From an uncultured Anaerolineaceae bacterium (GTDB taxonomy: Bacteria; Chloroflexota; Anaerolineae; Anaerolineales; UBA11579), in NCBI GenBank assembly GCA_964371335.1, contig CAYJMC010000001.1, positions 14,648 through 78,647 of the forward strand: a stretch of DNA of 64,000 bases, given 5' to 3'. The position numbers and the translations under genes were made by a program. The notes below the pieces were generated by a model that searched no databases, was not told the origin of the DNA, and saw only the letters and a program-made list of their open reading frames with translations. Below, piece by piece: positions 12,110 through 51,927 of the stretch. The number at the start of each line of letters is the position of its first letter. Within the stretch, counting starts at the first letter, position 1.

Positions 12110-12165
12110 TTGCGATTCTGAGCGAGTAAGGCGGCCAGAGGCAGCCGTGACGAAGCGAAGTAAAC
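12110..12165 (-). repeat. Family-1 hairpin repeat (GIY-YIG-tail unit), long form
   Basis: Minus strand reads ...ACTTCGCTTCG-tCACGGCTGCCTCTGGCCGCCTTA-CTCGCTCAGAATCGCAA. The loop is nearly identical to the copy at 42588-42650. Confidence 0.7.
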
Positions 12166-12168
12166 AGA

Positions 12169-12552
12169 TCAACTTTCCTTGCCCCCGGTTAGTTCCCCGG
12201 TTTCTTCGTCTTTTCCTTTCTTTTGTGATCGCGCTTCTGGTTGCCGCGTCCAGGCAACGATCTGGTGATCCAAATCGTCTAGCGCCGCGCGGGTTTCTTT
12301 GATCTCGTTCCTGAGTTCGCCGCCCAGTTTCTTCACATCTTCGTATCCCGCCTCCTTGGCCAGCTGATCCGGCAGATCGCGCAATTGGCGGCGCGCACTT
12401 TGGATGTTGCGCCAGGTACCCGATTCACGCAGGCTGCGCAAGGCGCGTCCCAGCGTGCCGCCAAGTTTCACCAGATCCTGCGGTCCTAGCACCAGGAAGA
12501 GGATCACAATTATGACCAGGAGCTCTACGGGGCTAATACCTAAAAATTCCAT
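12169..12552 (-). CDS. TatA/TatB-family translocase protein
   Basis: MEFLGISPVELLVIIVILFLVLGPQDL: TM plus hinge Gly-Pro plus amphipathic helix. Confidence 0.8.
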   Translation of the reverse strand: MEFLGISPVELLVIIVILFLVLGPQDLVKLGGTLGRALRSLRESGTWRNIQSARRQLRDLPDQLAKEAGYEDVKKLGGELRNEIKETRAALDDLDHQIVAWTRQPEARSQKKGKDEETGELTGGKES

Positions 12553-12609
12553 GACCAGTACTTAATAACAATAACCAATCTCGTCACCAATTTGCCAGTA
12601 ACCAATTAC
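12553..12609. repeat. Degenerate heptamer array (family 3)
   Basis: CTTAATA ACAATAA CCAATCT CGTCACC AATTTGC CAGTAAC CAATTAC. CCAAT recurs three times. Fills the nusB-tatA spacer. Confidence 0.5.
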
Positions 12610-13061
12610 TGCTTCCCATCTTTTGCCGCGTGTTCCGGCCCGAGCGCCTGGTAGATTTCATTTCGGCGTTCCGCCAGGCTGCCCAGCACCCCGTTCACAA
12701 AACGCGAGGAACTATCCGAACCGTAGCGTTTCGCCAGTTCGACGGCTTCGTTAATGGCCACCTTGACGGGCGTTTGCTGGGAGATGGCGAACTCCCAGAC
12801 AGCCATTCGGATCAGGTTGCGGTCGATGATGGAGACTTGATCGATGGGCCATTCAGGGGCGTGTTCGGCGATGTAGCCGTCGAGTTCTTTGCGGATGGGA
12901 TAAACGCCTCGCACCAGGCGGCTGGCGAATTCTTCCAGGTTGTCGTCGAGTTCGTAATCGCTGATGCGGGCGGCTAGCACTTCATCCAACGGGTGCCCGG
13001 CCAGATCAATCTCGTATAGCGCCTGGAGCGCCAGGCTGCGCGCCCGGGTGCGCGGTTTCAT
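12606..13061 (-). CDS. nusB: Transcription antitermination factor NusB
   Basis: RSLALQALYEID..., AINEAVELAKRYG...FVNGVL. Confidence 0.9.
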   Translation of the reverse strand: MKPRTRARSLALQALYEIDLAGHPLDEVLAARISDYELDDNLEEFASRLVRGVYPIRKELDGYIAEHAPEWPIDQVSIIDRNLIRMAVWEFAISQQTPVKVAINEAVELAKRYGSDSSSRFVNGVLGSLAERRNEIYQALGPEHAAKDGKQ

Positions 13062-13063
13062 CG

Positions 13064-13384
13064 CTAATCTTTGCTGTCAGTCGGCGGAAAGTAAATATCT
13101 TCGATGTGGACGTTGATGAGCCCAGCTTGCATCCCAACCATCTCTTCGATGGCGCGTGCCACCGCGGTCTGCACTTCGCGGCTCACTTGGCGCAGGTTCA
13201 GATCTTTATCCAGCACAAGGTAGAGATCGACGTCGACAACTCGGTCGATTACCTTGATTTGCACGCCTTCACCCGCGCCATGGCGCTGGACTGTGGCGTG
13301 GACGCCGGGAACCTTGAGCGCCGTCAGCCGCGCGATGGAATGGAGTACGTCTGGAGCAATTGTAGTGGAATCTGGGTTGCGCAT
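13064..13384 (-). CDS. Asp23/Gls24-family protein
   Basis: IAPDVLHSIARLTALKVPGV pattern. The position upstream of nusB is typical. Confidence 0.75.
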   Translation of the reverse strand: MRNPDSTTIAPDVLHSIARLTALKVPGVHATVQRHGAGEGVQIKVIDRVVDVDLYLVLDKDLNLRQVSREVQTAVARAIEEMVGMQAGLINVHIEDIYFPPTDSKD

Positions 13385-13394
13385 AATCTTTTCC

Positions 13395-14156
13395 TTAGAA
13401 CATTGCCATACCGCCGTCGACCGCCAGCACCTGGCCGGTGATATAGCCGGCCTCGTCCGAGGCCAGGAAGGCGACGGCGTAAGCGATCTCTTCGGGAGTG
13501 CCTTTGCGGGCGAGGGGGATCATCTTGACGAATTGCTCGCGCATCTCTTCAGGAACGCCCGCCCAAATCTCGGTGTCCACGTAGCCGGCGGCCACCGCGT
13601 TCACAGTGATGTTGCGCGCGGCTACCTCGCGGGCCAGCGCCTTGGTGAAGCCGATCTGGCCGGCTTTGGATGCCGAATAGTTGGTTTGCCCTGCGTTCCC
13701 GATTTGCCCGGATACGGAAGTGATGTTGATGATGCGCCCGGTGCGAGCCTTCATCATGTGCCGCACCGCCGCTTTGGAACAATTGAAAGTGCCCTTGAGG
13801 TTAGTGTCGATCACCGCGTCCCAGGATTCTTCGCTCATCATCATGATAAGCATGTCGCGGGTGATGCCGGCGTTGTTGACCAGAATATCGATCCTTCCCC
13901 ATTTTTCGATCGCGCCTTTCACCAGGGCATTGGCGTCTTCGACCTTTGCGACATCTCCCGGGAGAGCTGCTGCCTTGCCGCCTGCATTGGTAATGGCCAC
14001 TACTACTTCCTCGGCAGCCTTGCCGTTCTGGTTGTAGTTCACAATGATGCTTGCGCCGCGGCTCGCCAGTTCGATGGCGATGGCTCGGCCAATGCCGCGC
14101 GAAGCTCCGGTGACGACGGCGACTTTATCGGCGAGTGGTCTGGCGTTTGCGGGCAT
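13395..14156 (-). CDS. fabG: 3-oxoacyl-ACP reductase FabG
   Basis: TGASRGIG, NNAG, S...YSASK SDR triad, and a FabG-like C-terminus GQVLAVDGGM. Confidence 0.88.
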   Translation of the reverse strand: MPANARPLADKVAVVTGASRGIGRAIAIELASRGASIIVNYNQNGKAAEEVVVAITNAGGKAAALPGDVAKVEDANALVKGAIEKWGRIDILVNNAGITRDMLIMMMSEESWDAVIDTNLKGTFNCSKAAVRHMMKARTGRIINITSVSGQIGNAGQTNYSASKAGQIGFTKALAREVAARNITVNAVAAGYVDTEIWAGVPEEMREQFVKMIPLARKGTPEEIAYAVAFLASDEAGYITGQVLAVDGGMAMF

Positions 14157-14196
14157 GGTAAAGTCCCTTCGACGGGATTATACCAACGGTGTTAGC

Positions 14197-14230
14197 TTTG
14201 CCACTCTGAGCAAAGCGAGGAGTCCATCCG
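14197..14230 (-). repeat. Family-1 repeat, short form
   Basis: Minus strand reads CGGATGGACTCCTCGCTTTGCTCAGAGTGGCAAA. Confidence 0.75.
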
Positions 14231-14256
14231 AACCGTTGCATTTCTTTTAGCTGCTC

Positions 14257-14370
14257 TTACTTAGGTATCCGAACACTGAATTCATTGTGCGTTTTAGCTC
14301 TGATTCTTCTTCTGCACCAACCCTCTATCTGCTTTCCAGCATTCACGGTGGATGCTTGGCTTAGCATTAG
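14257..14370 (-). pseudogene. GIY-YIG nuclease C-terminal remnant
   Basis: My translation ...NAGKQIEGWCRRRIRAKTHNEF... matches the EKQIKGW.R.KK..LI block of COG2827-type GIY-YIG proteins. No N-terminal half. A family-1 tail follows it. Confidence 0.35.
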
Positions 14371-14406
14371 CAATAATAGCTAGTTAGCACGTCCAGAAAA
14401 CTCGCA

Positions 14407-15681
14407 TCATTCCGTGAAAATCCGCGCCCCGAGATCGAAGCCGGCGGCTTGCAGCCGCGCCATGAACACTGGGCGTAGCCCCGTGGATTTCAGTTTCCCC
14501 AACACTTTGCCTTCGGGCGATGTACCGGTTTGCTCGAATTTGAAGATGTCGGTCATGGTGACCATGTCGCCTTCCATGCCGGCCACTTCGGTGATGTGGG
14601 TCACCTTGCGCGAGCCATCCGGCAGGCGGCTCTGCTGAATGAATAGATCCACCGCCGAGGCGATCTGCTGCCGCACCATGCGCGCCGGCAGGTCCAGGCC
14701 GGCCATCAGCACCAGCGTTTCCAGGCGGGAGATTGCATCGCGTGGGGAATTGGCATGGACGGTGGTAAGCGAGCCATCGTGGCCCGTGTTCATGGCCTGT
14801 AGCATATCCAGCGCCTCCCCGCCGCGCACTTCGCCAACTACGATGCGGTCCGGCCTCATGCGCAGCGCGTTTCGCACCAGGGCGCGCACAGTCATTTCGT
14901 TGTCCTTGCCGGCATCCGCGGGCTTGGTCTCCAGGCGCACGACGTGCTCTTGTTGGAGCTGGAGTTCTGCGGCATCTTCGATGGTGACGATACGTTCGTG
15001 AGACGGTATGAAGCTGGAGAGGATGTTCAACAGGGTGGTCTTGCCTGACCCCGTGCCGCCGGAAATGATGATGTTCAGTCTCGCTTTGACGCAGGCCTCC
15101 AGGAATTCGGCCATCTTTTCTGAGAGCGAACCGAAGCGGATCAGGTCGGGAATGCCGAGGCGCTCTTTGGGGAATTTGCGAATGGTGATCGAGGGACCAT
15201 CAATTGCCACCGGCGGGATAATGGCGTTCACCCTGGAACCATCGGGCAGGCGGGCGTCGACCGCCGGGGAGGAGCGGCTGATAGTGCGGCCCAGTGGCTT
15301 GATGATATTTTCGATAACCCGGATAACCTGTTCGCTGTTGATGAAAGCTATATCTGTTTTTTGGATTCGGCCGTTGCGTTCCGCGTAGACAACGGAAGGA
15401 CCGTTTACCATCACCTCGGTGACGTCGGGGTCATCCAGCAATGGCTGCAACGGGCCGAAGCCCATGAGGCCGGCCGTGATCTCATCGAAGATCAGGGCGC
15501 GTTCGCCGTCGGGTATCTGCAATTTAGTGCGCGTATAGGCTTGGGTCAATGCTTCGCGGATCACTTCCCTTTGATCTTTTATCTCTTCCCCTTCCGCGGG
15601 CAGCGCTTTTAGCGCTTCGGCGATCAAATACGATTTAAGCTTGGATTGATGCTCGATGCTGAGCGGACTCGCCGTGCTCAT
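14407..15681 (-). CDS. CpaF/TadA-family type II/IV secretion ATPase
   Basis: Walker [10 protein letters not shown], Asp box, Walker B, and the His box of VirB11/CpaF ATPases. Confidence 0.88.
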
Positions 15682-15956
15682 TTTTCCTCCCCCCGTTCCA
15701 CCAGCCAGATGATTTCGCTGCGGTTCAGCGCCAGGAAATCGCTCTGCAGCAATTCTGTCTTGCCATCCACATCCATCACGACGACGTTAGTCAATGGGAT
15801 AAAGGTTTCAGCTTTATTCAGTTTATCGATCATACGGTTGTCAGGCCGCTTGTGTATGGTGCCGCGGATGCGATTGTTGCGCGTTTGGATTGTGACTTGC
15901 AGCGGCACCTTGTGGACTACTTCGGTGAAGACTTTGCCCTTGTCATCGATTTCCAT
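15678..15956 (-). CDS. Small beta-rich protein of unknown function, translationally coupled to cpaF
   Basis: ATGA overlap with the cpaF start. I prefer ATG 15956 (GAAGGAGA 7 nt upstream) over 15977. No family recognised. Confidence 0.5.
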   Translation of the reverse strand: MEIDDKGKVFTEVVHKVPLQVTIQTRNNRIRGTIHKRPDNRMIDKLNKAETFIPLTNVVVMDVDGKTELLQSDFLALNRSEIIWLVERGEEK

Positions 15957-15970
15957 CGCCGTTTCTCCTT

Positions 15971-16319
15971 CTACCATCTTGATATTTTTGCCACTCTGAG
16001 CGAAGCGAAGAGTCCATCCGAGTCCTTGCTATCTTCAAGCCACTCCTTGCTCAGGTCTTTGAACTTTGGATTCATAGTTCGAATCAATTCTAATTTCTTC
16101 TTGCGTAGCCATCCCTTTATGCAACGCTCGGCATCCATAGCTTCATATACATCGGAGAATTCTTCGAAGAACAAGAGTTGATCGATATGTATTTGGCACT
16201 GAAAACCTTTTACCGCTTTCGTTTTGTGTTCATAAAATTCTTCGTTCCAAATCGCTGGTTATGCCCACATGAAGCGCACCTTTGCCGTTACCAAGGATGT
16301 AGAAGTAATAGTTATTCAC
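15971..16319 (-). pseudogene. GIY-YIG nuclease (COG2827-type), frameshifted
   Basis: GTG 16319 gives MNNYYFYILGNGKGALHVGITSDLERRIL*. One extra T shifts into the frame reading YEHKTKAVKGFQCQIHIDQLLFFEEFSDVYEAMDAERCIKGWLRKKKLELIRTMNPKFKDL..., which is ORF 15971-16174. Confidence 0.7.
15987..16020 (-). repeat. Family-1 repeat, short form (the 3' tail of the GIY-YIG pseudogene)
   Basis: Minus strand reads CGGATGGACTCTTCGCTTCGCTCAGAGTGGCAAA and encodes ...DGLFASLRVAK. Confidence 0.8.
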
Positions 16320-16356
16320 TGGTCATCCAAGATTGTTTTGAGTATTTTTATGTTAA

Positions 16357-16413
16357 GGATGAATGCTTCGCAACGCCTTCCCGCTGAGCGGGAAAGCTGC
16401 TCAGCATGGCAAA
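16357..16413 (+). repeat. Family-1 repeat, long form
   Basis: GGATGAATGCTTCGC-aacgCCTTCCCGCtgaGCGGGAAaGctg-CTCAGCATGGCAAA with an internal hairpin. Confidence 0.7.
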
Positions 16414-16435
16414 TGCGTAGTTCTTGACCATAGCT

Positions 16436-17386
16436 TTAGCTTGATAATGTCTCAAAATCCGCCGGCTCTCCAAGCGCGATGCCTTCAGCTTCGGCGTCGA
16501 TGCGCTTCAACAGCCCCGTTAGCACGGAGCCGGACCCTAGCTCGATAAAGCTTTTGACGCCCAGCTTGCGCAGATTGCGGATGGATTCGGTCCAGTGCAC
16601 TCTGGACGTTAGCTGCCCGTAAAGGTCCCCCCGGATGGTATCCGCTGTCTTCAGAATGTCGGCGCCCACATTGCCCACGATGGGGATCTCTGGATCCTCG
16701 ATCAAGGCATCGTCCACCGCGATGCGGAACTGGTCCTGCGCCCCCGCCATCAGCGGCGAGTGCGCCGCGATGCTGACCGCCAGCGGCAGCGCCCGTTTGG
16801 CGCCAGCTTCCTTGGCCAGGTCCATTGCGCGTTGAACCGCGCCTGAGTGCCCGGAGATGACCACCTGGCCCGGGCTGTTGTCGTTCGCGACCTGCACTAC
16901 TTCCTTGCCCACGATGCTGGCTTTGAAGCAGATCTTGTCCAGCGTTTCGATGTCAATCCCCAGGATGGCGGCCATGCCGCCGGGGTTTTGCTGGCCCGCC
17001 AGCTTCATCAGTTCGCCGCGGCGGCGCACCAGCTTCAGCGCCGCGGGAAAATCCAGTGCACCGGCGGCCACCGCTGCGGAGATCTCTCCGAGGCTGTGCC
17101 CGGCCACATAGGCAGGCACGAAGCCAAGATGCAGTTTTTCGAAGACGCGCAGCGCAGCCACGGAGTGCACCAACAGGGCGGGCTGGGTGTTGATGGTGTC
17201 ATTGAGTTCGTCCTCGGGGCCTTCCCAGCACAGCTTGGAGAGCTGAATGCCCAGCAGCTTGTCGGCTTGGTCAAAGACGGCTTTGGCTTCGGGGTGGGCG
17301 GCGGCCAGCGCTTGTCCCATGCCTGGTTTCTGCGAACCTTGGCCGGGGAAGAGGAAAGCAATGGTGGATGGATCCGGAAAGATCAT
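16436..17386 (-). CDS. fabD: Malonyl-CoA:ACP transacylase FabD
   Basis: FPGQGSQ, GHSLGE, and a typical length of 316 aa. Confidence 0.9.
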   Translation of the reverse strand: MIFPDPSTIAFLFPGQGSQKPGMGQALAAAHPEAKAVFDQADKLLGIQLSKLCWEGPEDELNDTINTQPALLVHSVAALRVFEKLHLGFVPAYVAGHSLGEISAAVAAGALDFPAALKLVRRRGELMKLAGQQNPGGMAAILGIDIETLDKICFKASIVGKEVVQVANDNSPGQVVISGHSGAVQRAMDLAKEAGAKRALPLAVSIAAHSPLMAGAQDQFRIAVDDALIEDPEIPIVGNVGADILKTADTIRGDLYGQLTSRVHWTESIRNLRKLGVKSFIELGSGSVLTGLLKRIDAEAEGIALGEPADFETLSS

Positions 17387-17443
17387 GACGGGATTTTAAA
17401 CGAAAATGGGATGAACGGCCTGTTTATGGCAACCTAAACCTGG

Positions 17444-17568
17444 ACAGGAAACTTATTTTGGTGTCCTGTGCATCATGAGCTGATAAGTGGGGTGAAAGGG
17501 ATGTCCGAAAAATTCTTGGTGGTCCTGTCTAAATGAAACTTACCATTCCACCGATCGTGATGTCCTGT
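17444..17568. promoter_or_regulatory. Cluster of GTCCTGT motifs upstream of the ATP-grasp gene
   Basis: GTCCTGT at 17463-69, 17522-28 and 17562-68. An inverted ACAGGA at 17444-49 forms ACAGGA-N14-TCCTGT with the first copy. Confidence 0.35.
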
Positions 17569-19246: not shown

Positions 19247-19255
19247 GACTTCAAG

Positions 19256-19292
19256 ACTTCAGGACGTCAGAACTTCAGGACGTCAGGACGTC
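19256..19292. repeat. Tandem 16-mer carrying GACGTC palindromes
   Basis: ACTTCAGGACGTCAGA ACTTCAGGACGTCAGG ACGTC. Starts 2 nt after the rpmF stop. Confidence 0.8.
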
Positions 19293-19293
19293 T

Positions 19294-19617: not shown

Positions 19618-20076
19618 ATGGGCGTGTATAAAGATTCGATAGATGTACTTCGCCAAACCGTCGAACGGGTCCATCATTCCAAGGCGAAATACAAAGAAAA
19701 GGTCTTCGTGCGCGAACTCCACGATGGCGATTTGGTTTGGGAAGGCGATGTTTTTATTTTCGAGCTCATGTATGACACCCAGCACAGCGGGGCCACCAAG
19801 GAACAGATCGAAGGCTGGCGGCTGCAGGGGCCCACGGCAAAAGCAGTGAAGGCCGCCGAGGACCGCGGCCAGAGGATCCGCGAGGCGCTGCAAAACGCCC
19901 ATGCTGAACACGGCGAGCCGCTGCGCAAAGCCAAGCTGGCCTACGCCTGGTCCTCACACGTCAAAGGCAGCGACAAGCGCAAGTTCCACGCCGTGTTGCA
20001 TCGTGGGAAGGTGAAATCGGCCGCCGACGCGGTGAAGGTAGCCATGGGGAAGGAAAAGCGAAAAAGGAAGAGGTGA
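19618..20076 (+). CDS. Unknown-function protein, tandem paralog 1
   Basis: AGGAG RBS. 77/146 identical residues to the next gene in my ungapped hand alignment. Shared blocks YDT.HSGATKEQI..WRL.GP and AKLAYAWSS..KGSD. Confidence 0.6.
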   Translation: MGVYKDSIDVLRQTVERVHHSKAKYKEKVFVRELHDGDLVWEGDVFIFELMYDTQHSGATKEQIEGWRLQGPTAKAVKAAEDRGQRIREALQNAHAEHGEPLRKAKLAYAWSSHVKGSDKRKFHAVLHRGKVKSAADAVKVAMGKEKRKRKR

Positions 20077-20259
20077 GAGTGCTTAGTTGTCTCAGCATGG
20101 TGCGTGCATTGGTGGCGAAAACTGCGCCCACCGTCATTTATGAGAAAGGCTTACGCCAGCGTTACCTGGAAGGAATGTAGGATACACTAGGTGGTTGAGC
20201 GGGGTAATGCAAGGAGAAAGGGGTTCTGCGAAACATAGGGGTTATCAGTAAGGAGCGAA

Positions 20260-20700
20260 ATGAGCGCGTTCAAGGATTCGGTAGAAACACTTCGCCTCAC
20301 TGTCGAAAAACTTTATCATGCCAATGCCAGATTCAAAGATAAGAAGTTTGTGCCCGAGGTGCGGGAAGGCGATGCCAAGTGGGAGGGCAATGTCTTCTCC
20401 TTTGGGCTTTTCTACGACACCAAACACAGCGGCGCCACCAAGGAGCAGATAGCCAACTGGCGGCTGCCCGGCCCCAGCGCCGAGGGCTTGGACGCCGCCG
20501 TGAAGCGCGGCCTGAAGCTCAGGAAGCAGTTGCTGGAGAGCACCACCCGCACCCCGGAGATCAGGCGCCGGGCGAAATTGGCCTACGCCTGGTCCTCGCG
20601 CATCAAGGGCAGCGACGAGCGCCAGTTGAACGTGGTGCTGCATGAAGGGGCAGTGAAATCAGCCGTCGATGCGGTGAGGTCGGTGATTGCGAAGGGTTAG
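20260..20700 (+). CDS. Unknown-function protein, tandem paralog 2
   Basis: AAGGAG RBS. Paralog of 19618-20076. Confidence 0.6.
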   Translation: MSAFKDSVETLRLTVEKLYHANARFKDKKFVPEVREGDAKWEGNVFSFGLFYDTKHSGATKEQIANWRLPGPSAEGLDAAVKRGLKLRKQLLESTTRTPEIRRRAKLAYAWSSRIKGSDERQLNVVLHEGAVKSAVDAVRSVIAKG

Positions 20701-22526: not shown

Positions 22527-22908
22527 TTTTCTCCTGCTCGCCGATCAACGCTGCAACTCTGCTAAGACTTGATAAAGGTATTTGATATCGTCCTTTTTGG
22601 GAAACCGAGAGTTTTTGTTTTTCCAACTCCCTTAATTCAGGTTTTACCGTGCCCAAAGGGATGCCGCCGAGATTGGAGATTTCCGTGGGACCCGCATCAT
22701 CCACCTGCCGAAACCCAAGCATATTAAGCGCCTTAACTGCCATCAAAAGGCTGAGGACTTTTTTTCTAGGACTCAGGGAATGGAACGCCGGACTGGGGAC
22801 GACTCCACCGGCATCGGTAAAACTAAAAAGGGGCCTCAGGGTTTCGGCCATCAGCTCCTCAGCAATAACCGCCTCAGAACGTACTAAAGATGATAAACTG
22901 CTTTCCAT
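22516..22908 (-). CDS. Island protein A (130 aa from ATG 22908; ORF track extends to TTG 22986)
   Basis: GGAGG lies 9 nt before ATG 22908, and a strong promoter sits inside the longer ORF. C-terminal GPTEISNLGGIPLGTVKPELRELEKQKLSVSQKGRYQI looks winged-helix-like. Confidence 0.5.
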   Translation of the reverse strand: MESSLSSLVRSEAVIAEELMAETLRPLFSFTDAGGVVPSPAFHSLSPRKKVLSLLMAVKALNMLGFRQVDDAGPTEISNLGGIPLGTVKPELRELEKQKLSVSQKGRYQIPLSSLSRVAALIGEQEKNGS

Positions 22909-22938
22909 GACAATAACCTCCATTGCGAAATCATTTGC

Positions 22939-22968
22939 AGTATATACGAAAGACAAATGTTCTGTCAA
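22939..22968 (-). promoter_or_regulatory. Near-consensus sigma70-type promoter of the island operon
   Basis: Minus strand: TTGACA (22968-22963), 16 nt, TATATA (22946-22941). Alternatively an 18-nt spacer to TATACT. Confidence 0.6.
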
Positions 22969-23257
22969 GGACGAAAACTGCTCCAAATAAGGATGAAATG
23001 TACTCCGCCCAAATGTTCAGTCTTGGGCAAATGATACCATCAATGACACAACTTATTTAGGATAGTGATAAATTAATTATTTTCACCACAGAGTAATTGA
23101 TGAGGCGATAAAACTGGGACACCGACTCTGGGTATCTCAACAGCCCCTATAGTTCCCAGATTGCGATCAAATTCGCATAATTAAGCTTCTGGACTTCTTT
23201 TAATGAAACAGGGGTACGGGCCAAGCTACGGTATTTGGCGATTGCTGACGAGGCATG

Positions 23258-23347
23258 CCGGACCAGGGACGACTCCACCGGCACCGATAAAACTGATAAG
23301 GGCCTCAGGGTTTCGGGCAACATGGCAGAACGATATAACCGCCTCAA
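23258..23347 (-). pseudogene. Decayed duplicate of the 5' part of island gene A
   Basis: About 62 nt at roughly 88% identity (hand alignment) to 22788-22850, with one indel, plus a shared ATAACCGCCTCA block. The reading frame is broken relative to gene A. Confidence 0.6.
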
Positions 23348-25556: not shown

Positions 25557-25624
25557 TTTGTCATCCCGAGCGTGTTGTGTAAATCATTACCCAAGCAATA
25601 AGCACGACCAGCGAGGGAACCCCA
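25557..25624 (-). repeat. Family-1 repeat, long form
   Basis: Plus strand: TTTGTCATCCCGAGCG-(36 nt)-CCAGCGAGGGAACCCC. Confidence 0.6.
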
Positions 25625-39982: not shown

Positions 39983-40043
39983 GGGTTTCCTCGCTTTCCG
40001 GTTCTTCCTTTGGTAATAATTTTTAAACCCCGCTCGGAATGAC
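39983..40043 (+). repeat. Family-1 repeat, long form
   Basis: GGGTTTCCTCGC-(37 nt)-GCTCGGAATGACC. Confidence 0.55.
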
Positions 40044-40051
40044 CGGGAAAG

Positions 40052-41940: not shown

Positions 41941-41989
41941 GCGATTGCTTCGTTCGGCCTCATTGCATTCGGCCTCCTCGCAATGACGG
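41941..41989 (+). repeat. Family-1 repeat, long form
   Basis: GCGATTGCTTCG-TTCGGCCTCattgcaTTCGGCCTC-CTCGCAATGACGG. Confidence 0.5.
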
Positions 41990-42013
41990 ACGAGGCGACC
42001 TCGCCCCTACCGG
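41986..42013 (-). repeat. REP singlet (family 2, GTAG-headed palindrome)
   Basis: Minus strand: CCGGTAGGGGCGAGGTCGCCTCGTCC. A 21-nt core is identical to the left arm of the 43185-43243 doublet. Confidence 0.7.
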
Positions 42014-42018
42014 CGGAG

Positions 42019-42493: not shown

Positions 42494-42512
42494 TTGGCAT
42501 AAACATTCAAAT

Positions 42513-42546
42513 TTTGCCATTCTGCGCAAAGCGAAGAGTCCATCCG
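42513..42546 (-). repeat. Family-1 repeat, short form (left arm of inverted pair)
   Basis: Plus strand: TTTGCCATTCTGCGCAAAGCGAAGAGTCCATCCG. Confidence 0.75.
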
Positions 42547-42587: not shown

Positions 42588-42650
42588 GGATGGATTCTTC
42601 GCGGCGCACGGCTGCCTCCGGCTGCCTTAGCTGGCTCAGAATGGCAAAAA
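42588..42650 (+). repeat. Family-1 repeat, long form (right arm of inverted pair)
   Basis: GGATGGATTCTTCGC-ggcgCACGGCTGCCTCCGGCTGCCTTAgctgg-CTCAGAATGGCAAAAA. Confidence 0.75.
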
Positions 42651-43103: not shown

Positions 43104-43184
43104 TGATGTCCTTGGCGAAGCTAGGGGATAAATAAGGAAATGAATGGAATGGTTGTGCCCATGCTGGCTTTGAAAGTTTCCGGG

Positions 43185-43243
43185 GGTAGGGGCGAGGTCG
43201 CCTCGCCCTTCACAGCCGAGGGCGGGGTGACCCCGCGCCTACC
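43185..43243. repeat. REPIN-like doublet: two inverted GTAG-headed REPs (family 2)
   Basis: GGTAGGGGCGAGGTCGCCTCGCCC (43185-43208) and GGGCGGGGTGACCCCGCGCCTACC (43220-43243). The arms pair over 24 positions with 2 mismatches and 2 G:U pairs. Each arm is also self-palindromic. Confidence 0.75.
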
Positions 43244-43257
43244 GGATTTATCGGTCC

Positions 43258-45351: not shown

Positions 45352-45443
45352 TATTCTTTATGTCCAGTCTTCGGCGAAATCAACCATTTTGGATTCATGG
45401 ACTTGATCAGGTCAACCTTCCTGGGTGGTCGGTAGCCCTTATG
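45351..45443 (-). pseudogene. GIY-YIG nuclease C-terminal remnant
   Basis: ...HKGYRPPRKVDLIKSMNPKW... aligns with IKGWLRKKKLELIRTMNPKF of the 15971-16319 pseudogene. Its stop overlaps the E1 ATG by 1 nt. Confidence 0.4.
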
Positions 45444-45450
45444 ACCAGAG

Positions 45451-45477
45451 GGACTCCTCGCTTTGTTCGGAGTGACA
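45451..45477 (+). repeat. Family-1 repeat, short form
   Basis: GGACTCCTCGCTTTGTTCGGAGTGACA. Confidence 0.7.
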
Positions 45478-45483
45478 TATAAA

Positions 45484-45545
45484 TTTGTCATTCCGAGGAG
45501 GGCGTTTAGCGTCGCTTTTAACGGCGCTGCCCGACGAGGAATCCC
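45484..45545 (-). repeat. Family-1 repeat, long form
   Basis: Plus strand: TTTGTCATTCCGAGGA-GGGCGTTTAGCGTCGCTTTTAACGGCGCTGCC-CGACGAGGAATCCC. The loop matches the copy at 51866-51927. Confidence 0.75.
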
Positions 45546-45585
45546 TTGAGGCAAAAAGAAACCAGCCTGTCTTTTTTTGACCCAA

Positions 45586-45613
45586 GGGATTCCCCACTTC
45601 GTTCAGAATGACA
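45586..45613 (+). repeat. Family-1 repeat, short form
   Basis: GGGATTCCCCACTTCGTTCAGAATGACA. Confidence 0.7.
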
Positions 45614-45620
45614 TGGTTCG

Positions 45621-46440: not shown

Positions 46441-46607
46441 AAAATCGATGGGTAAGGGTAGCATAGGGATAAGCGTCTAGAAGGTAGAATAAGAAGCTGA
46501 GATTAGAAACTGGAGATTGAGCCTGCGAGTTATCAAATATTAGTAACTGGTAATTTCTAACGGCTAAAAGCCAATGGCTAATAGCTGAATGCAAAACGAT
46601 TGGAGAA
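46441..46607. repeat. Long degenerate heptamer array (family 3) upstream of trxA
   Basis: For example GCTGAGA TTAGAAA CTGGAGA TTGAGCC ... AACTGGT AATTTCT AACGGCT AAAAGCC AATGGCT AATAGCT GAATGCA. Confidence 0.65.
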
Positions 46608-46613
46608 AATAAG

Positions 46614-46976
46614 ATGCAGAACGAACCCATTCATGTGACCGACGATGCATTCGAGAAGGCCGTATTGAAATCGGAGACGCCGGTTGTTGTAGATTTCTGG
46701 GCTCCGTGGTGCGGACCCTGCTTGCGGGTGGCTCCGGTGCTGGATAAGCTAGCCAAGGATTACGCAGGCAAGGTTATCGTTGCCAAAGTCAATACGGACG
46801 AGAACCCAAAGTGGGCGCAGCAATATGGCGTGCAGGGCATCCCCACGATGCTGTTTGTGGCAGGCGGCAAGCTGGTGCATCGCCAGGTGGGCGCTATGCC
46901 GGAGCCGATTTTGCGTGAGCTCTTCGATCAGTTCATTGAAGTGGCGAAGCCAAAGGAAACGGCTGCCGCGGCCTAG
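46614..46976 (+). CDS. trxA: Thioredoxin
   Basis: VVDFWAPWCGPC active site. About 110-aa core. Confidence 0.92.
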   Translation: MQNEPIHVTDDAFEKAVLKSETPVVVDFWAPWCGPCLRVAPVLDKLAKDYAGKVIVAKVNTDENPKWAQQYGVQGIPTMLFVAGGKLVHRQVGAMPEPILRELFDQFIEVAKPKETAAAA

Positions 46977-47045
46977 ACAACGGAAAAACAAAAAGGCAGA
47001 GGCTGGGAAAAGGTCCCAGCCTCTTTTCTTTACTATAATCCCAGC

Positions 47046-47756
47046 GTGCTGATTATTAGCCTACTATTTGGGTTATTAGGTGGCCTTGTGGTTAATTACT
47101 TTGCCGATGTGCTACCGGCAACCCGGCGACTAGCGAAGCCTGAGTGGTGGCCGCTGAGCAGAAGCGGATTGCGAGAATATTTGGCGCGCCCGCGGGTTTT
47201 AGCGGTTACTGGATTGTCGCTTTCGGGCGCTTTTTTGTTAAACCAGTTCCCACCGGCCGATTTCTCTATTTATCTACTGGTCGTCATCCTCGCTTATTTT
47301 TTCACTGTTGCCGTCATCGACATCGAGCATCGCGCCGTGTTGCATCCAGTTAGCATTGTGGGGGCGATCCTTATGGGTGGGATCGGTATCTGGCGACATG
47401 GCTGGGTGGATTCGTTGATCGGCGGGGCTGCAGGATTTGGATTCATGCTGGCTGTCTATTATCTTGGCGATTGGCTGGGGCGGCTGGTGGCGCGGGCGCG
47501 CAAAGAGCCCTGGGAGGAAACGGCGCTCGGATTCGGCGACGTGGACTTGGCGGGCGTGATCGGCCTGCTAATGGGCTGGCCCGGGGTGATCGCAGCGCTG
47601 TTTATGGGGATGTTAGCGGCGGGAATCTTCAGCGCCGGATACTTGCTGTTCACATTCGTCAGCGGCAAATATCGGGCTTTCGCATCGATTCCGTACGCCC
47701 CATTTTTGTGTATGGGCGCGGTGGTGAGTGTGCTGGCGGGAATTTATTTCGGATGA
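47046..47756 (+). CDS. A24-family prepilin peptidase-like membrane protein
   Basis: Two catalytic Asp contexts, AVIDIEHR and GFGDVDLAGVIG. Polytopic. Confidence 0.7.
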   Translation: MLIISLLFGLLGGLVVNYFADVLPATRRLAKPEWWPLSRSGLREYLARPRVLAVTGLSLSGAFLLNQFPPADFSIYLLVVILAYFFTVAVIDIEHRAVLHPVSIVGAILMGGIGIWRHGWVDSLIGGAAGFGFMLAVYYLGDWLGRLVARARKEPWEETALGFGDVDLAGVIGLLMGWPGVIAALFMGMLAAGIFSAGYLLFTFVSGKYRAFASIPYAPFLCMGAVVSVLAGIYFG

Positions 47757-48163
47757 GGGTGGGATTCGATGAAAACCAAAGCCTGACGCAATACTTCATC
47801 TTCCTCAATGTCATCGGTTGCAATCTCTAAATCGGCGTGCTGGCGGGCATGGGCGAGGCGCGGTTGCTGATCTTCGTATTCTGATCGCAGCCAGTTAAGG
47901 CCGCGGGTCACTGAGGTTTCGTAAATGCAATGAAGGTAAATCAATACATCAGGGTTGGAGATCTGTTGCCACATGCGGGGAGCGTACGAATGTTCCTGGA
48001 CGATCTGGCGGGCGTCGTAGCCCGCTTGCTGCAAACCGCGCACCAGCGTGGACTTGCCTGATTTGCACGGGCCAACAATTCCAATTAGAAAGCCAGGTGG
48101 TTGCTTCGTCAGCCTACGGCCCTCCTCGCAACTGCGGAAGTCAAAGCCTTCCTTGATTTGCAC
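47744..48163 (-). CDS. Small P-loop NTPase / kinase-like protein
   Basis: Walker A GIVGPCKSGKST. No further family recognised. Confidence 0.55.
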   Translation of the reverse strand: MQIKEGFDFRSCEEGRRLTKQPPGFLIGIVGPCKSGKSTLVRGLQQAGYDARQIVQEHSYAPRMWQQISNPDVLIYLHCIYETSVTRGLNWLRSEYEDQQPRLAHARQHADLEIATDDIEEDEVLRQALVFIESHPHPK

Positions 48164-48194
48164 GGGCCGACGACGCCAATCGGCTTGGCGCTAC

Positions 48195-48911
48195 TCATAA
48201 AGGCAATCTAGCCCACATACGACGGACTTCGTCTTTGCCGCGCGGCAGGACGCCGAGAACGACGACGCTTATATCGTCGACTGGGCGACCCTGCTCGAGT
48301 CTAAGGGCTGCGGTCATCAGGCCATCGGCAACTTCTTGCGGCGCGCCGCCTTTGGCCAGCAAGTGGTTGAATTCGGCCGTGACATCCAATTGCTGATCGC
48401 GGCGGACGCCGGCGAATAGAAGGCCATCGGTAAACGTGGCAATCATAAGGCCTGCGCGGAGATCGAGTTCGGCAATAACCGGCCGCGTGCCGCGGCGCAA
48501 GCCCACCGGCTGGCTGTCTTCGTCCAACGCGTTTGTTTTACCATCAGCATGCACCAAAACCGGGCTTGGATTGTTGCGAGTAATCACCACAGTACGAGAT
48601 TCAAGATCGATGGAGAGAATATTAAGCGTGGATTGCACTTTGCCACTGCGGTGGGTATAGAGGTAATCGGATGCGGCGCGAGCTGCGGCGCCATCGCGCA
48701 CGCCTTCGGCCAGCAGTGAGATGACCTTGCGCACAACCATGTTAGAGATCAGCTTGGCACTCTTGCCGGAGCGCTGGCCGTCGGCCAGCACCACGGAGAG
48801 CCCGCCACCGGGCCGCTCGACGACTTCGAGCGTATCCCCACTTTCGGAGGACGCGTATTTATTGATCTTGGCGACGCCGATTTGGATTTCCACGGGATGA
48901 TTGTAAAGCAT
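48195..48911 (-). CDS. SpoIIE/PP2C-like serine phosphatase domain protein
   Basis: SESGDTLEVV....GGLSVVLADGQRSGKSA and TFTDGLL blocks, as in the PP2C/SpoIIE fold. Confidence 0.6.
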   Translation of the reverse strand: MLYNHPVEIQIGVAKINKYASSESGDTLEVVERPGGGLSVVLADGQRSGKSAKLISNMVVRKVISLLAEGVRDGAAARAASDYLYTHRSGKVQSTLNILSIDLESRTVVITRNNPSPVLVHADGKTNALDEDSQPVGLRRGTRPVIAELDLRAGLMIATFTDGLLFAGVRRDQQLDVTAEFNHLLAKGGAPQEVADGLMTAALRLEQGRPVDDISVVVLGVLPRGKDEVRRMWARLPL

Positions 48912-48965
48912 CTGCTAATCCCTTAATCGGTTAATCGCGAGGTTTGATTAACGAATTAATGGATT
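48912..48965. repeat. Degenerate short-period array (period about 8)
   Basis: TTAATCgg TTAATCgc ... ATTAACga ATTAATgg ATTAATag ATTGG. Confidence 0.6.
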
Positions 48966-49644
48966 AATAGATTGGTTTGCCGATAATTAGTATTACCTCG
49001 GATCCTGACAAATGGACTCGTCTTTCTTCGACAGAAAAACCTGCTCGGCGCAACGGTTGGCTGAAGCGAGAGTCCCAATTGGGCGCCTGGCCGGTGACGC
49101 GGAACAGCCAGGCGGCTAGCCGATCCCAGATACGGTTACCGCGGATCCAGGCGACCGGCAGAACGACAAACTTGCCGGTCTGAACTAAGGCGCGATGCGC
49201 CTCCGACAGTGTCTTTGTTTGAGCGATGTATTCGGACGGAAAAGTTGCAACCAACTGGTCGAACGTTTGGCCGGAAAAAGGCAGATGTTCTGCAGAGGCG
49301 CGGACCAAATTGGGTGTGTGCTTGGCTGTAGCCAGGCGTTTATAAGCAAGGCGGCCCATAGGTGCGCTGCGGTCGAGGCCGAAAGCGTGAATGCCTTTTT
49401 TGTGGAGCGCGAGCTGTAAGTGACCGGAGCCGTGGCCGAGCTCTAGAATCCGAGGACCCGGCAGATCCGGCAAGGCGCTGTACACCCAGGTTTTCCAACG
49501 GCCAAGGGAAACGACCCAGGCAACCAGATCGTAGCTGAAAGCCAGGGGCTCGTAGATCAGGTAAAAGAAAAAGAAGAGGAAGCGGGTGAAAAGATTACGT
49601 GCCTGGCGATAATCACCTGAAGCCAGGCGATTATTGCCGGGCAT
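48964..49644 (-). CDS. Class I SAM-dependent methyltransferase
   Basis: ILELGHGSGH motif I and a downstream acidic loop. Confidence 0.7.
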   Translation of the reverse strand: MPGNNRLASGDYRQARNLFTRFLFFFFYLIYEPLAFSYDLVAWVVSLGRWKTWVYSALPDLPGPRILELGHGSGHLQLALHKKGIHAFGLDRSAPMGRLAYKRLATAKHTPNLVRASAEHLPFSGQTFDQLVATFPSEYIAQTKTLSEAHRALVQTGKFVVLPVAWIRGNRIWDRLAAWLFRVTGQAPNWDSRFSQPLRRAGFSVEERRVHLSGSEVILIIGKPIY

Positions 49645-49648
49645 GCTG

Positions 49649-49879
49649 TTACGCGCCGAGGACTTGGACCTCGACGCCCTGTTTGCGCAGCCAATCGATG
49701 GAGGATTCGATGAGGCTGGCTGATCCCACCAATTGCACTTCGAGCCAACCTTCGGTGGGGTTCACTTCCGCGCGTAAAATGTTCACGGTTAAATCGCCAA
49801 AATTGCGGATCAACTGATTGACAATAGGAACATTGACTACGGAGGGTGGGTAGATGAGTCGGAGGACTTGTTCGGTCAC
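49649..49879 (-). CDS. Stand-alone NIL-domain protein
   Basis: 76 aa. P....L.......VNIL.A.V......G.L.V.L.G pattern of the MetN C-terminal NIL domain. Confidence 0.65.
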   Translation of the reverse strand: MTEQVLRLIYPPSVVNVPIVNQLIRNFGDLTVNILRAEVNPTEGWLEVQLVGSASLIESSIDWLRKQGVEVQVLGA

Positions 49880-49923
49880 TTCAGGCTCCTTTGTGCAGGT
49901 TAACGAATTCTAGCATGGAACAA

Positions 49924-50979
49924 TTACGCGGATGCAGCAGCCGGGGAGGCGTGTTCAGCCAATTGCCCGCAGCCCGCCTGGATATCGATGCCGCGGCGGA
50001 CGCGAACGGTGCAGGAGATGCCGTGGGATTCGAGGATATCGCGGAAAGCTGAGACCCGTTCGCGCGTTGAACGTTCGCCACTGTAGCCGCGGGTTGGATT
50101 TAGCGGGATCACATTCACATGGCAATTGAGCCCAGCGAGTAATTCGGCGAGGCGGCGAGCTTCATCCGGACCGTCGTTTACGTTTTGGATCAGCGCCCAT
50201 TCGAATGTGATGCGGCGGCCCGTGGTCTCCACATAATCGCGGCAGGCTTGTATCAGATCCTTGATGGGATAGCGCTGATTGACCGGCAGCATGGATGTGC
50301 GAAGCTCATCCTGAGTCGCATGCAGTGAAATTGCAAGGCCGATCTGGCGTTTTTCAGCAGTGAAACGCTTGATAGCTGGAATGAGTCCTACAGTGGAGAT
50401 GGTGAAACGGCGGGCGCCCATGTTGAAACCGTCTGGATGGCCGAGGCGATCGATGGCTGCAAGCGTAGCTTCGTAATTGTGGAAGGGTTCGCCCATGCCC
50501 ATAAGAACAACATTGGTGACGCGTTCACCTTCGGCCTTGAGCTGGCGAGCAAAGAAAAGCACTTGCCCGACAATTTCTCCGCTGGTCAGATTTCTGCGAA
50601 AGCCCATCTGGCCTGTGGCGCAAAAGACACAGCCCATGGCGCAGCCTGCCTGTGTGGAAATGCATAGCGTGTTGCGTTCTTTATAGCGCATGAGCACCGT
50701 CTCAATGGGCTGTCCATCGGGAAGCACGAAGAGAACCTTTGTGGTTTGACCATCCTTAGAGTGAAGCCTCTCGGCCTCAGGCAGATTGGTGAAGCTGAAC
50801 TTATCAGCCAGCTTTTGGCGTAACTCCTTGGGGAAGGTGGAGAAATCTTCGGGGCGCGACCAAAGCTGTTGGTAGAGACCTTGCCACAGTTGCTTGGCGC
50901 GATAAGACGGCTGGCCCCATTTTTTGAATAGGGCGGTGAGTTGTTCAAGGTCCAAATCGTAAATAAAAGGCCTGCTCAT
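49924..50979 (-). CDS. rlmN: 23S rRNA/tRNA A2503-C2 methyltransferase RlmN
   Basis: Radical-SAM CAMGCVFCATG, GMGEP, and a C-terminal Cys. I prefer ATG 50979 (MSRPFIYDL) over TTG 51009. Confidence 0.88.
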   Translation of the reverse strand: MSRPFIYDLDLEQLTALFKKWGQPSYRAKQLWQGLYQQLWSRPEDFSTFPKELRQKLADKFSFTNLPEAERLHSKDGQTTKVLFVLPDGQPIETVLMRYKERNTLCISTQAGCAMGCVFCATGQMGFRRNLTSGEIVGQVLFFARQLKAEGERVTNVVLMGMGEPFHNYEATLAAIDRLGHPDGFNMGARRFTISTVGLIPAIKRFTAEKRQIGLAISLHATQDELRTSMLPVNQRYPIKDLIQACRDYVETTGRRITFEWALIQNVNDGPDEARRLAELLAGLNCHVNVIPLNPTRGYSGERSTRERVSAFRDILESHGISCTVRVRRGIDIQAGCGQLAEHASPAAASA

Positions 50980-51045
50980 TTTTCCGCGCTGATTATCCCC
51001 TAATAACAACGAAATAACATTTGAATAACGTAAAAGAAAACTTAC

Positions 51046-51825
51046 TTATAACTTTTCGATAAGGGTCTCCAGATCATTCTCGATGTAATCCGGTGCCGGC
51101 TGCCAGGCGCGGGCGGCGGCTTCGCTGGTGACGCCGGAGAGCAGCAGGGCGGTGCGGCAGCCGGCCTTCCGCCCGGCGGCCACGTCCGTTTCGACGCGGT
51201 CTCCGACCATCAGCGTTTCGGCGGGCTTGACGCTGAGTGCCGCCAGCGCGCTATCCAGCAGGGCGCGCTCCGGTTTGCCGATGATGGCGGGCTTGACGTC
51301 CGTGGCGGCCTCCAGAGCCGCCAGGATGCTTCCGGCTCCGGGGACCTCACCGTTTGGAGAAGGCAAAGTACGATCTGGGTTGGTACCGATGAAGGCCGCG
51401 CCGTTGCGGATGAGGTGCGTAGCAGTGGCCAGCTTGTCATAAGTCAGTTCGCGGTCCAGGCCGACGACGACTGCCAGGCAATCCTTCTCGGTTATCTTAA
51501 AGCCATGGCCTTGCATAGCTTCACGAAGTCCTTGCTCACCGATGACATATACATTCCCGCCGCATTGGTATTGTTGGGCAAGCGTATGCGCGGCCACCTT
51601 GGCCGAGGTGTGAATTTGCTCGGCTGGGATCTCCAAGCCAAAGCCTCGGAATTTTTCCTGGTATTGCTCTACGGTGCGGGTGGCGTTGTTGGTGACGAAA
51701 GCGGTCTGCAGTCCTTTGGCGGCGATCTTGTTCATGATGGCGGGTAGGTCGCCGATGGGCTCGTGGTCGCGCCAGAGCACGCCGTCCATGTCGAGCAGTA
51801 AGGCGCGCAGTTTGGGCGTGGGCAT
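51046..51825 (-). CDS. HAD-IIA family hydrolase (NagD-like)
   Basis: LLDMDGVLW, TNN.T, and GD...TD. Confidence 0.8.
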   Translation of the reverse strand: MPTPKLRALLLDMDGVLWRDHEPIGDLPAIMNKIAAKGLQTAFVTNNATRTVEQYQEKFRGFGLEIPAEQIHTSAKVAAHTLAQQYQCGGNVYVIGEQGLREAMQGHGFKITEKDCLAVVVGLDRELTYDKLATATHLIRNGAAFIGTNPDRTLPSPNGEVPGAGSILAALEAATDVKPAIIGKPERALLDSALAALSVKPAETLMVGDRVETDVAAGRKAGCRTALLLSGVTSEAAARAWQPAPDYIENDLETLIEKL

Positions 51826-51865
51826 GAAGGGGATTATAGCGGTGGACTTGGGTTAATTAGTCTAG

Positions 51866-51927
51866 AAGATTGCCACGTCGGCAGCGCCGTTTAAAAGGGG
51901 CGCTAAACGCCTACTCTCAATGACGAA
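51866..51927 (+). repeat. Family-1 repeat, long form
   Basis: GAAGATTGCCACGTC-GGCAGCGCCGTTTAAAAGGGGCGCTAAACGCC-TACTCTCAATGACGAA. The loop matches 45484-45545. Confidence 0.65.

Follow-up and report, generated by a model that had tools for sequence, protein, structure and literature searches.

The question raised by this locus is why short hairpin repeats, dispersed between its genes, should occur together with genes for small GIY-YIG nucleases. The window (the whole stretch of DNA analysed, 64,000 nt from an uncultured Anaerolineaceae bacterium of the phylum Chloroflexota; GenBank assembly GCA_964371335.1, contig CAYJMC010000001.1, positions 14,648 to 78,647) carries one such gene in a decayed state between two of the hairpins. 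An earlier note on the same DNA had listed 13 hairpin copies and proposed either a mobile hairpin with which the nuclease gene travels or a sequence left behind by repeated insertion and decay of that gene. In our view the repeats are very probably Ssn-related motifs (SRM), that is, tagged, strand-asymmetric DNA hairpins that lie on either side of genes for small single-domain GIY-YIG nucleases (the Ssn family) and serve these as recognition sites. The repeat–nuclease system itself is already known, as Ssn/SRM was published in 2025 (PMC11893778) and the hairpin class was catalogued in 2013 (PMC3733652). SsnA, a protein of 94 aa with a single GIY-YIG domain (cd10448), was described in Neisseria meningitidis (Chenal et al., Nat Commun 2025; PMC11893778); it binds the NTS repeat (CGTCATTCCCGCGMAVGCGGGAATCYRG) only as single-stranded DNA (ssDNA), and only that strand of it, and cuts a few nucleotides upstream; the substitutions Y6A, Y17A and E64A abolish cleavage, and the strand-specific activity on ssDNA is known for this enzyme and three homologues. 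The same study found an SRM near 71% of Ssn homologues and on both sides of 42%, described the NTS–ssnA–NTS arrangement as insertion sequence (IS)-like and reported that in Neisseria the Ssn system lowers transformation by NTS-bearing DNA (PMC11893778). By homology to the Neisseria enzyme, a nuclease of this family would be expected to recognise the window hairpins, to bind them only in single-stranded form and only on the strand that reads tag first, and to cut a few nucleotides 5' of the tag.

The most complete member of the system in the window is a hairpin–ssn–hairpin unit of 427 bp at 15987–16413, which survives with a dead gene. The gene (15986–16319, minus strand, delimited by three-frame translation and tblastn) is a pseudogene of the Ssn single-domain type without an intact open reading frame (ORF): one T has been added to the T-run after ...ERRI, the stop codon is lost, Y17 has become H and the conserved FTxKY has become FQCQIH. 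After removal of one T the window copy reconstructs to the length of its homologues (~95 aa), which are 65–74% identical to it, about 94–98 aa long and end in ...DLSKDWxE. Sequencing error does not explain the frameshift, since eight independent assemblies agree on the length of the stretch between FabD and the DUF6812 gene. At its 3' end the unit has a short hairpin at 15987–16019 (plus strand), which on the tag-first strand reads TTTGCC-ACTCT-GA-GCGAAGC-GA-AGAGT-C-CATCC, and at its 5' end a longer, inverted hairpin at 16357–16413 (minus strand). The earlier note had described the hairpin as identical to the 3' tail of the nuclease genes, a view that does not hold for intact homologues: these stop just before the hairpin, and in the orthologous gene of a relative (L095, see below) the stop codon lies 9 nt before it. 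The window copy codes through its hairpin, as ...DGLFASLRVAK, because its stop is lost. Hairpins of this kind give rise to spurious ORF extensions such as ...FAQNDK and ...SLRVAK, and many proteins in the databases have hairpin-encoded extensions such as the former.

Assignment to the Ssn family follows from the intact orthologue (P0004), which matches Pfam PF01541 (E 4.7e-15) and shares 40% identity over 85 aa (E 5e-23) with the SsnA homologue of N. gonorrhoeae, itself encoded among dRS3/NTS repeats. The fold predicted for it (pLDDT 90) contains no extra domain; among solved structures UPF0213 proteins come nearest and Slx1 next. E64 does not vary in the family alignment (A1), and conservation of Y7 and Y17 is 90% or higher there. 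Two further hairpins had been said to follow GIY-YIG remnants. This is solid for one of them, where the 3' end of an ssn gene at 14230–14300 (minus strand; ELKRTMNSVFGYLSKSS*KKCNGS...) lies just upstream of the hairpin at 14197 and gives a tblastn match over 14196–14300 with an E value of 2.6e-5; the supposed remnant at 42513 is the hairpin itself. A weak ssn remnant, KGYRPPRKVDLIKSMNPKW, is present at 45384–45440 (minus strand; tblastn E 0.014, and in the ORF listing).

The association between hairpin and gene is seen far beyond this window. A homologue search with an alignment query that omitted the hairpin-encoded tail, taking one genome per species, gave 80 loci from more than 12 phyla (L011–L090, 1.2 Mb in total), and in these nearly every gene has the arrangement G-AT-stem-loop-stem'-AT-GACA within about 100 nt downstream. 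A strict tagged-hairpin pattern matched 409 times in this sequence compared with 46 times in shuffled versions of it. A same-strand hairpin lies no more than 200 nt downstream of the gene in 62/80 loci, the hairpins upstream are mostly inverted (77 versus 29), and 47/80 loci have the complete order GTCAT-hairpin-ATC, ~95-aa ORF, GAT-hairpin-ATGAC in units of 350–470 bp. The window unit and its L095 orthologue are both organised in this way. Inverted pairs of hairpins with no gene between them and spacers of 5–100 nt are common in other loci, and among the 80 loci no other type of gene recurs between paired hairpins. Within one locus the stems resemble each other more closely (0.42–0.51) than do stems of different loci (0.14). 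In the other phyla ATGAC is followed by A or G, and GAT is preceded by a purine, each in 92% of hits. The connection proposed in the earlier note is therefore both real and general, and the family in which it is found comprises 8,246 clusters at 50% identity that reach E<=1e-10. Such repeats also flank the GIY-YIG genes of Azospirillum lipoferum 4B, S. meliloti, N. aromaticivorans and N. gonorrhoeae; the first three species, and Neisseria, are listed as positive for CGTC-tagged repeats in the 2013 catalogue (PMC3733652). In A. lipoferum the gene (L106; plasmid AZO_p3, 255506–255799) separates sufB from sufC within the suf operon and has a dimer of CGTC-tagged repeats on each side. It was also seen that the hairpins break assemblies, and that in five loci (L022, L025, L027, L055 and L090) the complete hairpin 3' of the gene is often followed by one to three tandem 3' halves running from the loop to ...ATGACA (for example ...GGGAATGACAATGCATCAAGTTGGGAATGACAGTGG...), which suggests repeated breakage or copying at the loop.

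The architecture of the repeats can be read directly from the window copies. On the tag-first strand, which is opposite to the strand called 'sense' in the earlier note and corresponds to the SRM/NTS-like orientation, the consensus is a (T/C)G(T/C)C tag, a 5-nt arm starting with A(T/C), GA, an inner hairpin of variable length (up to ~45 nt), GA, the complementary arm and a C, so that each copy consists of a 5-bp outer stem, a 2 × 2 internal loop (GA/GA) and an inner hairpin. The proposal that the flanks pair was borne out, and the stem covaries among the window copies (ACTCT/AGAGT, ATTCT/AGAAT, ATTCC/GGAAT, ATTGC/GCAAT and ATGCT/AGCAT). Covariation was also observed outside the window: when 32 hairpins of other phyla were aligned without gaps, positions 13 and 19, whose pairing had not been imposed by the search, formed G-C in 17 cases and A-T in the other 15, and thus were paired in every one, and across 143 distinct model hits the covariation score was 0.359 compared with 0.164 in shuffles (0/500 shuffles as high), falling to 0.05–0.10 in slid controls. 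A single G.U was found in the six regular pairs of these 143 hits, and this near-absence of G.U points to a constraint on the stem that acts on DNA rather than RNA. In the commonest class the tag-first strand reads stem, GA, GC-GNA-GC, GA, stem (72 of the 150 best hits have exactly this form, and each of the four bases occurs at N). GCGNAGC is known as a DNA 'mini-hairpin' motif, with a reported melting temperature near 76 °C (PMC13037366); we infer that this stability carries over to the repeats, and the energy model used for folding does not include it. With that model the long hairpin 16357–16413 folds on its tag-first strand into the outer 5 bp, the 2 × 2 loop and the inner hairpin, with −14.7 kcal/mol and a z-score of −3.05. 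Flavobacterial relatives have an 8-bp stem with a 4-nt loop instead.

All 13 listed copies were located by reading the sequence, each at or within 1 nt of the coordinate given for it, and a structural scan of the window added a 14th at 48099–48135 that had not been listed. The number of copies is above chance once composition is controlled, since the 3' half-motif GCTCAGARTGRCAAA occurs eight times with no more than two mismatches, against 0.55 expected, and none of 100 dinucleotide shuffles reached eight. Independent support for the short forms came from a covariance model (R1) built solely from hairpins of other phyla, with no window sequence, which recovered all five in the window with E values from 3.5e-5 to 0.12. 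The best match was the 3' hairpin of the ssn unit (match span 15985–16018, E 3.5e-5), and the others were 45586–45614 (minus strand, tag TGTC; match 45584–45617, E 8.8e-5), 45450–45478 (minus strand, tag TGTC; match 45448–45481, E 1e-4), 42513–42545 (plus strand; match 42511–42544, E 0.023) and 14197–14229 (plus strand; match 14195–14228, E 0.12). The last of these ranked sixth, behind one unrelated partial match at 854–870; its region is 84% identical to 15980–16029 and it is the relic right end of a second unit. The long forms in the window were not detected by R1. A loose structural scan of the window gave seven matches versus 2.3 in shuffles, which is too noisy to prove them, and an even looser scan gave 14–26 matches per 18–20 kb locus in the window strain and its relatives alike, with members picked by eye. 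Support for the long forms comes from their common half-motifs, their complementary arms and their shared inserts; as the earlier note had observed, inserts are held in common by two pairs, 12109 and 42588 (CACGGCTGCCT..GCCTTA) and 45484 and 51867.

Besides the 5' end of the ssn unit the long forms comprise solo copies at 25557–25623 (plus strand, tag TGTC, intergenic), 39983–40044 (minus strand, tag GGTC, adjoining the terminator hairpin between SurA and PspC), 41941–41989 (minus strand, tag CGTC, stem ATTGC/GCAAT, abutting a GTAG-type repeat) and 51867–51927 (minus strand, tag CGTC, adjoining an intrinsic terminator), a degenerate copy between TatA and TatC at 12109–12165 (plus strand) that is a relic of a full unit, and members of two inverted pairs without a gene. 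In the first of these pairs 42513–42545 is the left half and 42588–42648 (minus strand) the right, with the tags outward and the tails facing each other, and in the second 45484–45545 (plus strand, tag TGTC) forms a tags-outward pair with 45586–45614. The 14th copy (minus strand) is degenerate in that the GTC tag is absent, and it retains a perfect 5-bp stem, GTTGC/GCAAC; degenerate too are 12109, 25557, 39983 and 51867, which pair at only three or four of the five outer positions (four in 25557), 12109 being the least well preserved. The statement that all copies are intergenic stands for the 13 then listed and fails for the 14th, which lies in the 5' edge of a gene for a P-loop protein. By our reading of the sequence the tag is CGTC in two copies, TGTC in four, GGTC in one, TGCC or TGCG in six and missing in one; the stem starts with AT in ten copies, with AC (paired with GT) in three and with GT in the untagged 48099 copy; and the C directly 3' of the palindrome is kept in 12/14. 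Apart from the two hairpins of the ssn unit the remaining 12 copies are solo hairpins, inverted pairs or stumps, and some of these at least were left by deletion of the gene from full units.

Both the lineage-specific presence of hairpins and their decay are observed at orthologous sites. Four syntenic relatives (L091–L094) were compared, whose SSB proteins are 85–94% identical to that of the window (DNA identity, measured for L094 only, is ~77%). The S6–SSB spacer, which holds 41941, is 140 nt in the window and 20–34 nt in the four relatives; the ScpA–E1 dehydrogenase spacer (45484) is 269 nt versus 2 nt in L093 and 94–126 nt in L091 and L094; the SurA–PspC spacer (39983) is 198 nt versus 62–103 nt in L091–L094; and the cytochrome c–S6 spacer (42588) is 343 nt versus ~152 nt in L091 and L093. 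No recognisable hairpin copies were found in the corresponding intergenic sites of L091–L094, and L093 and L094 have an empty site at 48099. The fifth relative compared, L095 (GCA_023485685.1), shares synteny with 11–17.4 kb of the window. Its FabD site, orthologous to that of the window unit, holds an intact gene of 96 aa together with the two hairpins; at the TatA–TatC site L095 has a second, decaying GIY-YIG copy with the right-hand hairpin, where the window keeps only 12109–12165, and this hairpin carries the same CACGGCTGCCT..GCCTTA insert as the window copy; and its CpaF–FabG spacer holds hairpins where the window has a gene remnant and the 14197 hairpin. The decaying copy at the TatA–TatC site indicates that solo hairpins are, at least in part, remains of full units. 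Of the two explanations offered in the earlier note, decay is thus directly supported, and mobility is plausible but not demonstrated; on our reading the hairpins may have spread as the terminal parts of an IS-like unit. Target-site duplications, which that note had suggested looking for, were not found above control in the flanks of the 47 full units. Ten strain-level assemblies, 99.7–99.9% identical, had no informative differences over 31.5–51.9 kb, only N-gaps at repeats, and among 8–10 such assemblies there was no difference in the presence or absence of hairpins (apart from N-gaps, one single-nucleotide polymorphism).

At two of these sites other features were noticed. The 48099 hairpin lies (within 48053–48180) between the two copies of a 27-nt imperfect direct duplication (ATTGG..GGCCCGTGCAAATCA, five differences, mostly synonymous) of the start of the P-loop gene, a site that is single-copy in L093; an ORF from the GTG in the first duplicate reads through the hairpin into the second and would give a new N-terminus, and gene callers differ as to its product (139 aa versus 99 aa). 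In L091 (6832–6959) and L094 (7300–7395) the ScpA–E1 dehydrogenase spacer contains a different hairpin (CACGGAGACAC...CCTCCGTG and CCGTGGAGACAGG...GTGTCTCCGTG, respectively) that is unrelated to the SRM family.

Three other explanations have to be set beside the Ssn/SRM one. It is quite unlikely, in our judgement, that the hairpins act mainly at the level of RNA, as terminators or mRNA-stabilising stem-loops, and that their closeness to stop codons reflects this. By our reading of the ORF lists and the sequence 8/14 copies do lie within ~50 nt of a stop codon, two copies adjoin terminators, and repetitive extragenic palindromic (REP) sequences of other bacteria can stabilise transcripts (PMC12306157), but the hairpins are in mixed orientation with respect to the genes (12109 with transcription, 41941 and 48099 against it), the stem is not followed by a U-run, hardly any G.U pairs occur in the stems, and the Neisseria SsnA protein does not bind the RNA form of its repeat (PMC11893778). 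Nor did any Rfam family match the repeats; the window was searched both at the gathering threshold and with E<=5, eight related loci at the gathering threshold. It is still harder to believe, and we consider it extremely unlikely, that the hairpins are ordinary GTAG-type REPs, or were mobilised by the Y1 transposase encoded at 1382–1897, so that the link with GIY-YIG genes would be incidental. The gene in question (minus strand; PF01797) resembles those for REP-associated tyrosine transposases (RAYT; NF047646, 69.5 bits, below the cut-off of 80), and true GTAG REPs are indeed present at 41984–42017 and 43179–43212; the window hairpins, however, have no GTAG tag, the association across phyla is with GIY-YIG genes, and in the 2013 catalogue no tyrosine transposase gene is flanked by CGTC repeats (PMC3733652). 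A RAYT as the partner enzyme was rejected because of the lack of a GTAG tag on the hairpins and the lack of repeats flanking the RAYT-like gene, which is packed between PlsX and its neighbour.

The third explanation extends the Ssn/SRM reading rather than excluding it. Here the hairpin–ssn–hairpin unit would be, now or until recently, a selfish mobile element that acts autonomously and not a host-domesticated system for ssDNA restriction, the nuclease would nick the single-stranded hairpin ends, and solo hairpins and pairs would be non-autonomous or decayed derivatives. We put this forward tentatively, as a possibility to which we give rather less than even weight. The IS-like inverted ends in 47/80 loci, in units of 350–470 bp (with tandem full copies in L082), are what such an element would have, and the lineage-specific insertions relative to L091–L094, the orthologous decay series formed by L095 and the window, the likeness of stems within a locus (0.42–0.51 versus 0.14 between loci) and the frequent breaking of contigs at the 3' end of the gene all point in the same direction, as did the authors of PMC11893778, who raised the same idea. 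On the other hand the flank matches at the full units equal the control, so that target-site duplications are lacking, the 8–10 strain-level assemblies do not differ in the presence of hairpins, the unit on the FabD side has not changed its position since the lineage separated from that of L095, the gene usually occurs in one or two copies per replicon in cultured species, only ten hits were obtained in 2.9 million viral contigs (which bears on carriage by phages), and no excision or insertion event has been observed. The decay series and the lineage-specific insertions sharpen, without settling, the choice between a mobile element and a domesticated ssDNA-restriction module. It is conceivable, again with some doubt, that the unit represents a class of transposable element absent from the IS catalogues, of ~400 bp, with a GIY-YIG ssDNA nuclease as its sole gene and no target duplication, decaying into the CGTC/TGTC-tagged REPs of many phyla. 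If so, Ssn would be the 'missing' enzyme of the CGTC REP superfamily, and the interrupted-stem hairpin (GA/GA loop plus GCGNAGC-type mini-hairpin) would be the commonest, so far uncatalogued end structure of the unit.

Several observations weigh against identifying the window repeats as SRM and should be considered together. The published SRM search pattern, HGTCWYN(0-2)YYVSBRHN(0-5)WNVSBRGN(0-2)RNCYNB, matched none of the window copies (0–3 matches in shuffles), and of the hairpins near Ssn-family genes it matches only 14/409, including 0/264 of those with a GA/GA internal loop. The pattern, which the Neisseria NTS itself matches, is a heuristic derived from 29 genomes and not a definition; as it misses the window copies, the form found here is a variant outside that operational definition. 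Six window copies, among them both ends of the ssn unit, are tagged TGCC or TGCG and not (C/T)GTC, and in Neisseria the bases upstream of the palindrome matter for cleavage. For the short forms the expected structure was predicted, but their folding energies equal those of shuffles (z −0.2 to +0.6); because the nearest-neighbour energies are no better than shuffles the case for their structure rests on covariation. Finally, both the window copy and the intact orthologue P0004 have H at position 17, that of the second catalytic tyrosine, and with a dead gene and H17 present-day activity in this lineage is doubtful unless there is another copy outside the window. As the gene is dead and no polymorphism was seen among strains the hairpins in this stretch look like fossils, unless an active copy exists elsewhere in the genome.

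With the Ssn/SRM identification retained, what is added here is an instance of the Ssn system in the Chloroflexota, together with members from more than 12 phyla in the 80-locus sample; the finding that the form of the hairpin commonest in that sample is missed by the published SRM pattern; and an orthologous series of intact unit, decaying unit and solo hairpin, along with lineage-specific insertions. Because that pattern catches so few of the hairpins the published SRM counts, and with them the 71% and 42% association, are probably underestimates.

Other repeats in the window may be mentioned briefly. The GTAG-tagged REPs (GGGCGAGGCGACCTCGCCCCTAC) form a second, unrelated family, at 41984–42017, where the copy abuts hairpin 41941, and at 43179–43250, where two inverted copies form a REPIN-like doublet; the spacers that hold them are shorter in L091 and L093. 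In L092 a Y1_Tnp-like gene (a faint hit) lies a few kb from the S6–SSB locus. Two tRNA-Leu genes (3050–3131, plus strand, GAG, and 54237–54321, minus strand, TAG) are inverted with respect to each other and 51 kb apart, with 87% complementarity over 69 nt. A tandem array of an 8-nt unit (ACTTCAGG/ACGTCAGG) is found at 19248–19292, a 131-nt direct repeat (74% identical, 642-nt spacing) at 19923–20695 and a 51-nt direct repeat (84% identical, 470-nt spacing) at 22782–23302, within a low-GC stretch at 20–24 kb.

Of the systems to which the repeats can be compared the nearest is Ssn/NTS of Neisseria, with which they share a ~95-aa single-domain GIY-YIG protein, inverted tagged hairpins on both sides of the gene, hundreds of copies without a gene in intergenic DNA and, for the most part, an asymmetric motif with a tag (of the GTC type in seven window copies) 5' of the palindrome and a C adjoining its 3' side (in 12/14). 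They differ in host, the Chloroflexota not being mentioned in PMC11893778, and in structure, the continuous stem of ~9 bp being replaced by a 5-bp stem, a GA/GA loop and an inner hairpin of variable length; in the window the gene-linked subfamily is tagged TGCC, the tags point outward in most of the 80 loci but towards the gene in the gonococcal locus, and the window gene is a pseudogene. The CGTC-tagged REPs of Di Nocera, De Gregorio and Rocco (2013; PMC3733652) have a CGTC, TGTC or CCTC tag, stems that start with A-T and a CCA-like tail, occur mostly as inverted dimers, include the Neisseria dRS3 and Rickettsia RPE-4/RPE-6 repeats and 'apparently lack a dedicated transposase' (PMC3733652). 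A short tail near CCA (…GTCCATCC in the window), the intergenic position and inverted dimers (42513/42588 and 45484/45586) are common to both, as are, in part of the window copies, a terminal CGTC/TGTC-type tag (six copies) and a stem that starts with AT (ten), whereas the stems in the catalogue are continuous, of 8–9 bp, with loops of 4–5 nt, which the window copies do not fit, and the catalogue covers five phyla, the Chloroflexi not among them (PMC3733652). From the motif definitions and the genes flanked in the reference species SRMs and CGTC-tagged REPs, the latter said to lack a dedicated enzyme, appear to be the same repeats, a connection that would join two descriptions (PMC11893778 does not cite the 2013 catalogue).

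The likeness to the REP/REPIN–RAYT systems, which are present in the window alongside the Ssn-type repeats and distinct from them, is one of organisation: short tagged palindromes in high copy number, inverted doublets, and a small nuclease gene flanked by its own repeats that is mostly low in copy number and vertically inherited, with no target-site duplications. The enzymes are different, an HUH tyrosine transposase as opposed to a GIY-YIG hydrolytic nuclease, and so are the tags (GTAG versus (C/T)GTC). Elements of the IS200/IS605 family likewise have imperfect DNA hairpins that are recognised in ssDNA and cut a short distance away, without target-site duplication, but use another enzyme and have both end hairpins on the same strand, whereas the ends here are inverted, so that the strands recognised would differ at the two ends, and transposition is proven for them and not for the ssn unit. 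The stand-alone GIY-YIG proteins Slx1 and UPF0213 (YhbQ-like; PDB 1zg2, 1ywl and 6seh) are the closest solved folds and belong to the minimal GIY-YIG lineage without the C-terminal Asn (PMC1564403); Slx1 differs in being a structure-specific nuclease that works with Slx4, and the UPF0213 structures in having no assigned function or repeat partner. Placed among these systems the window is a decayed member of the Ssn system from another phylum, with a variant form of the hairpin.

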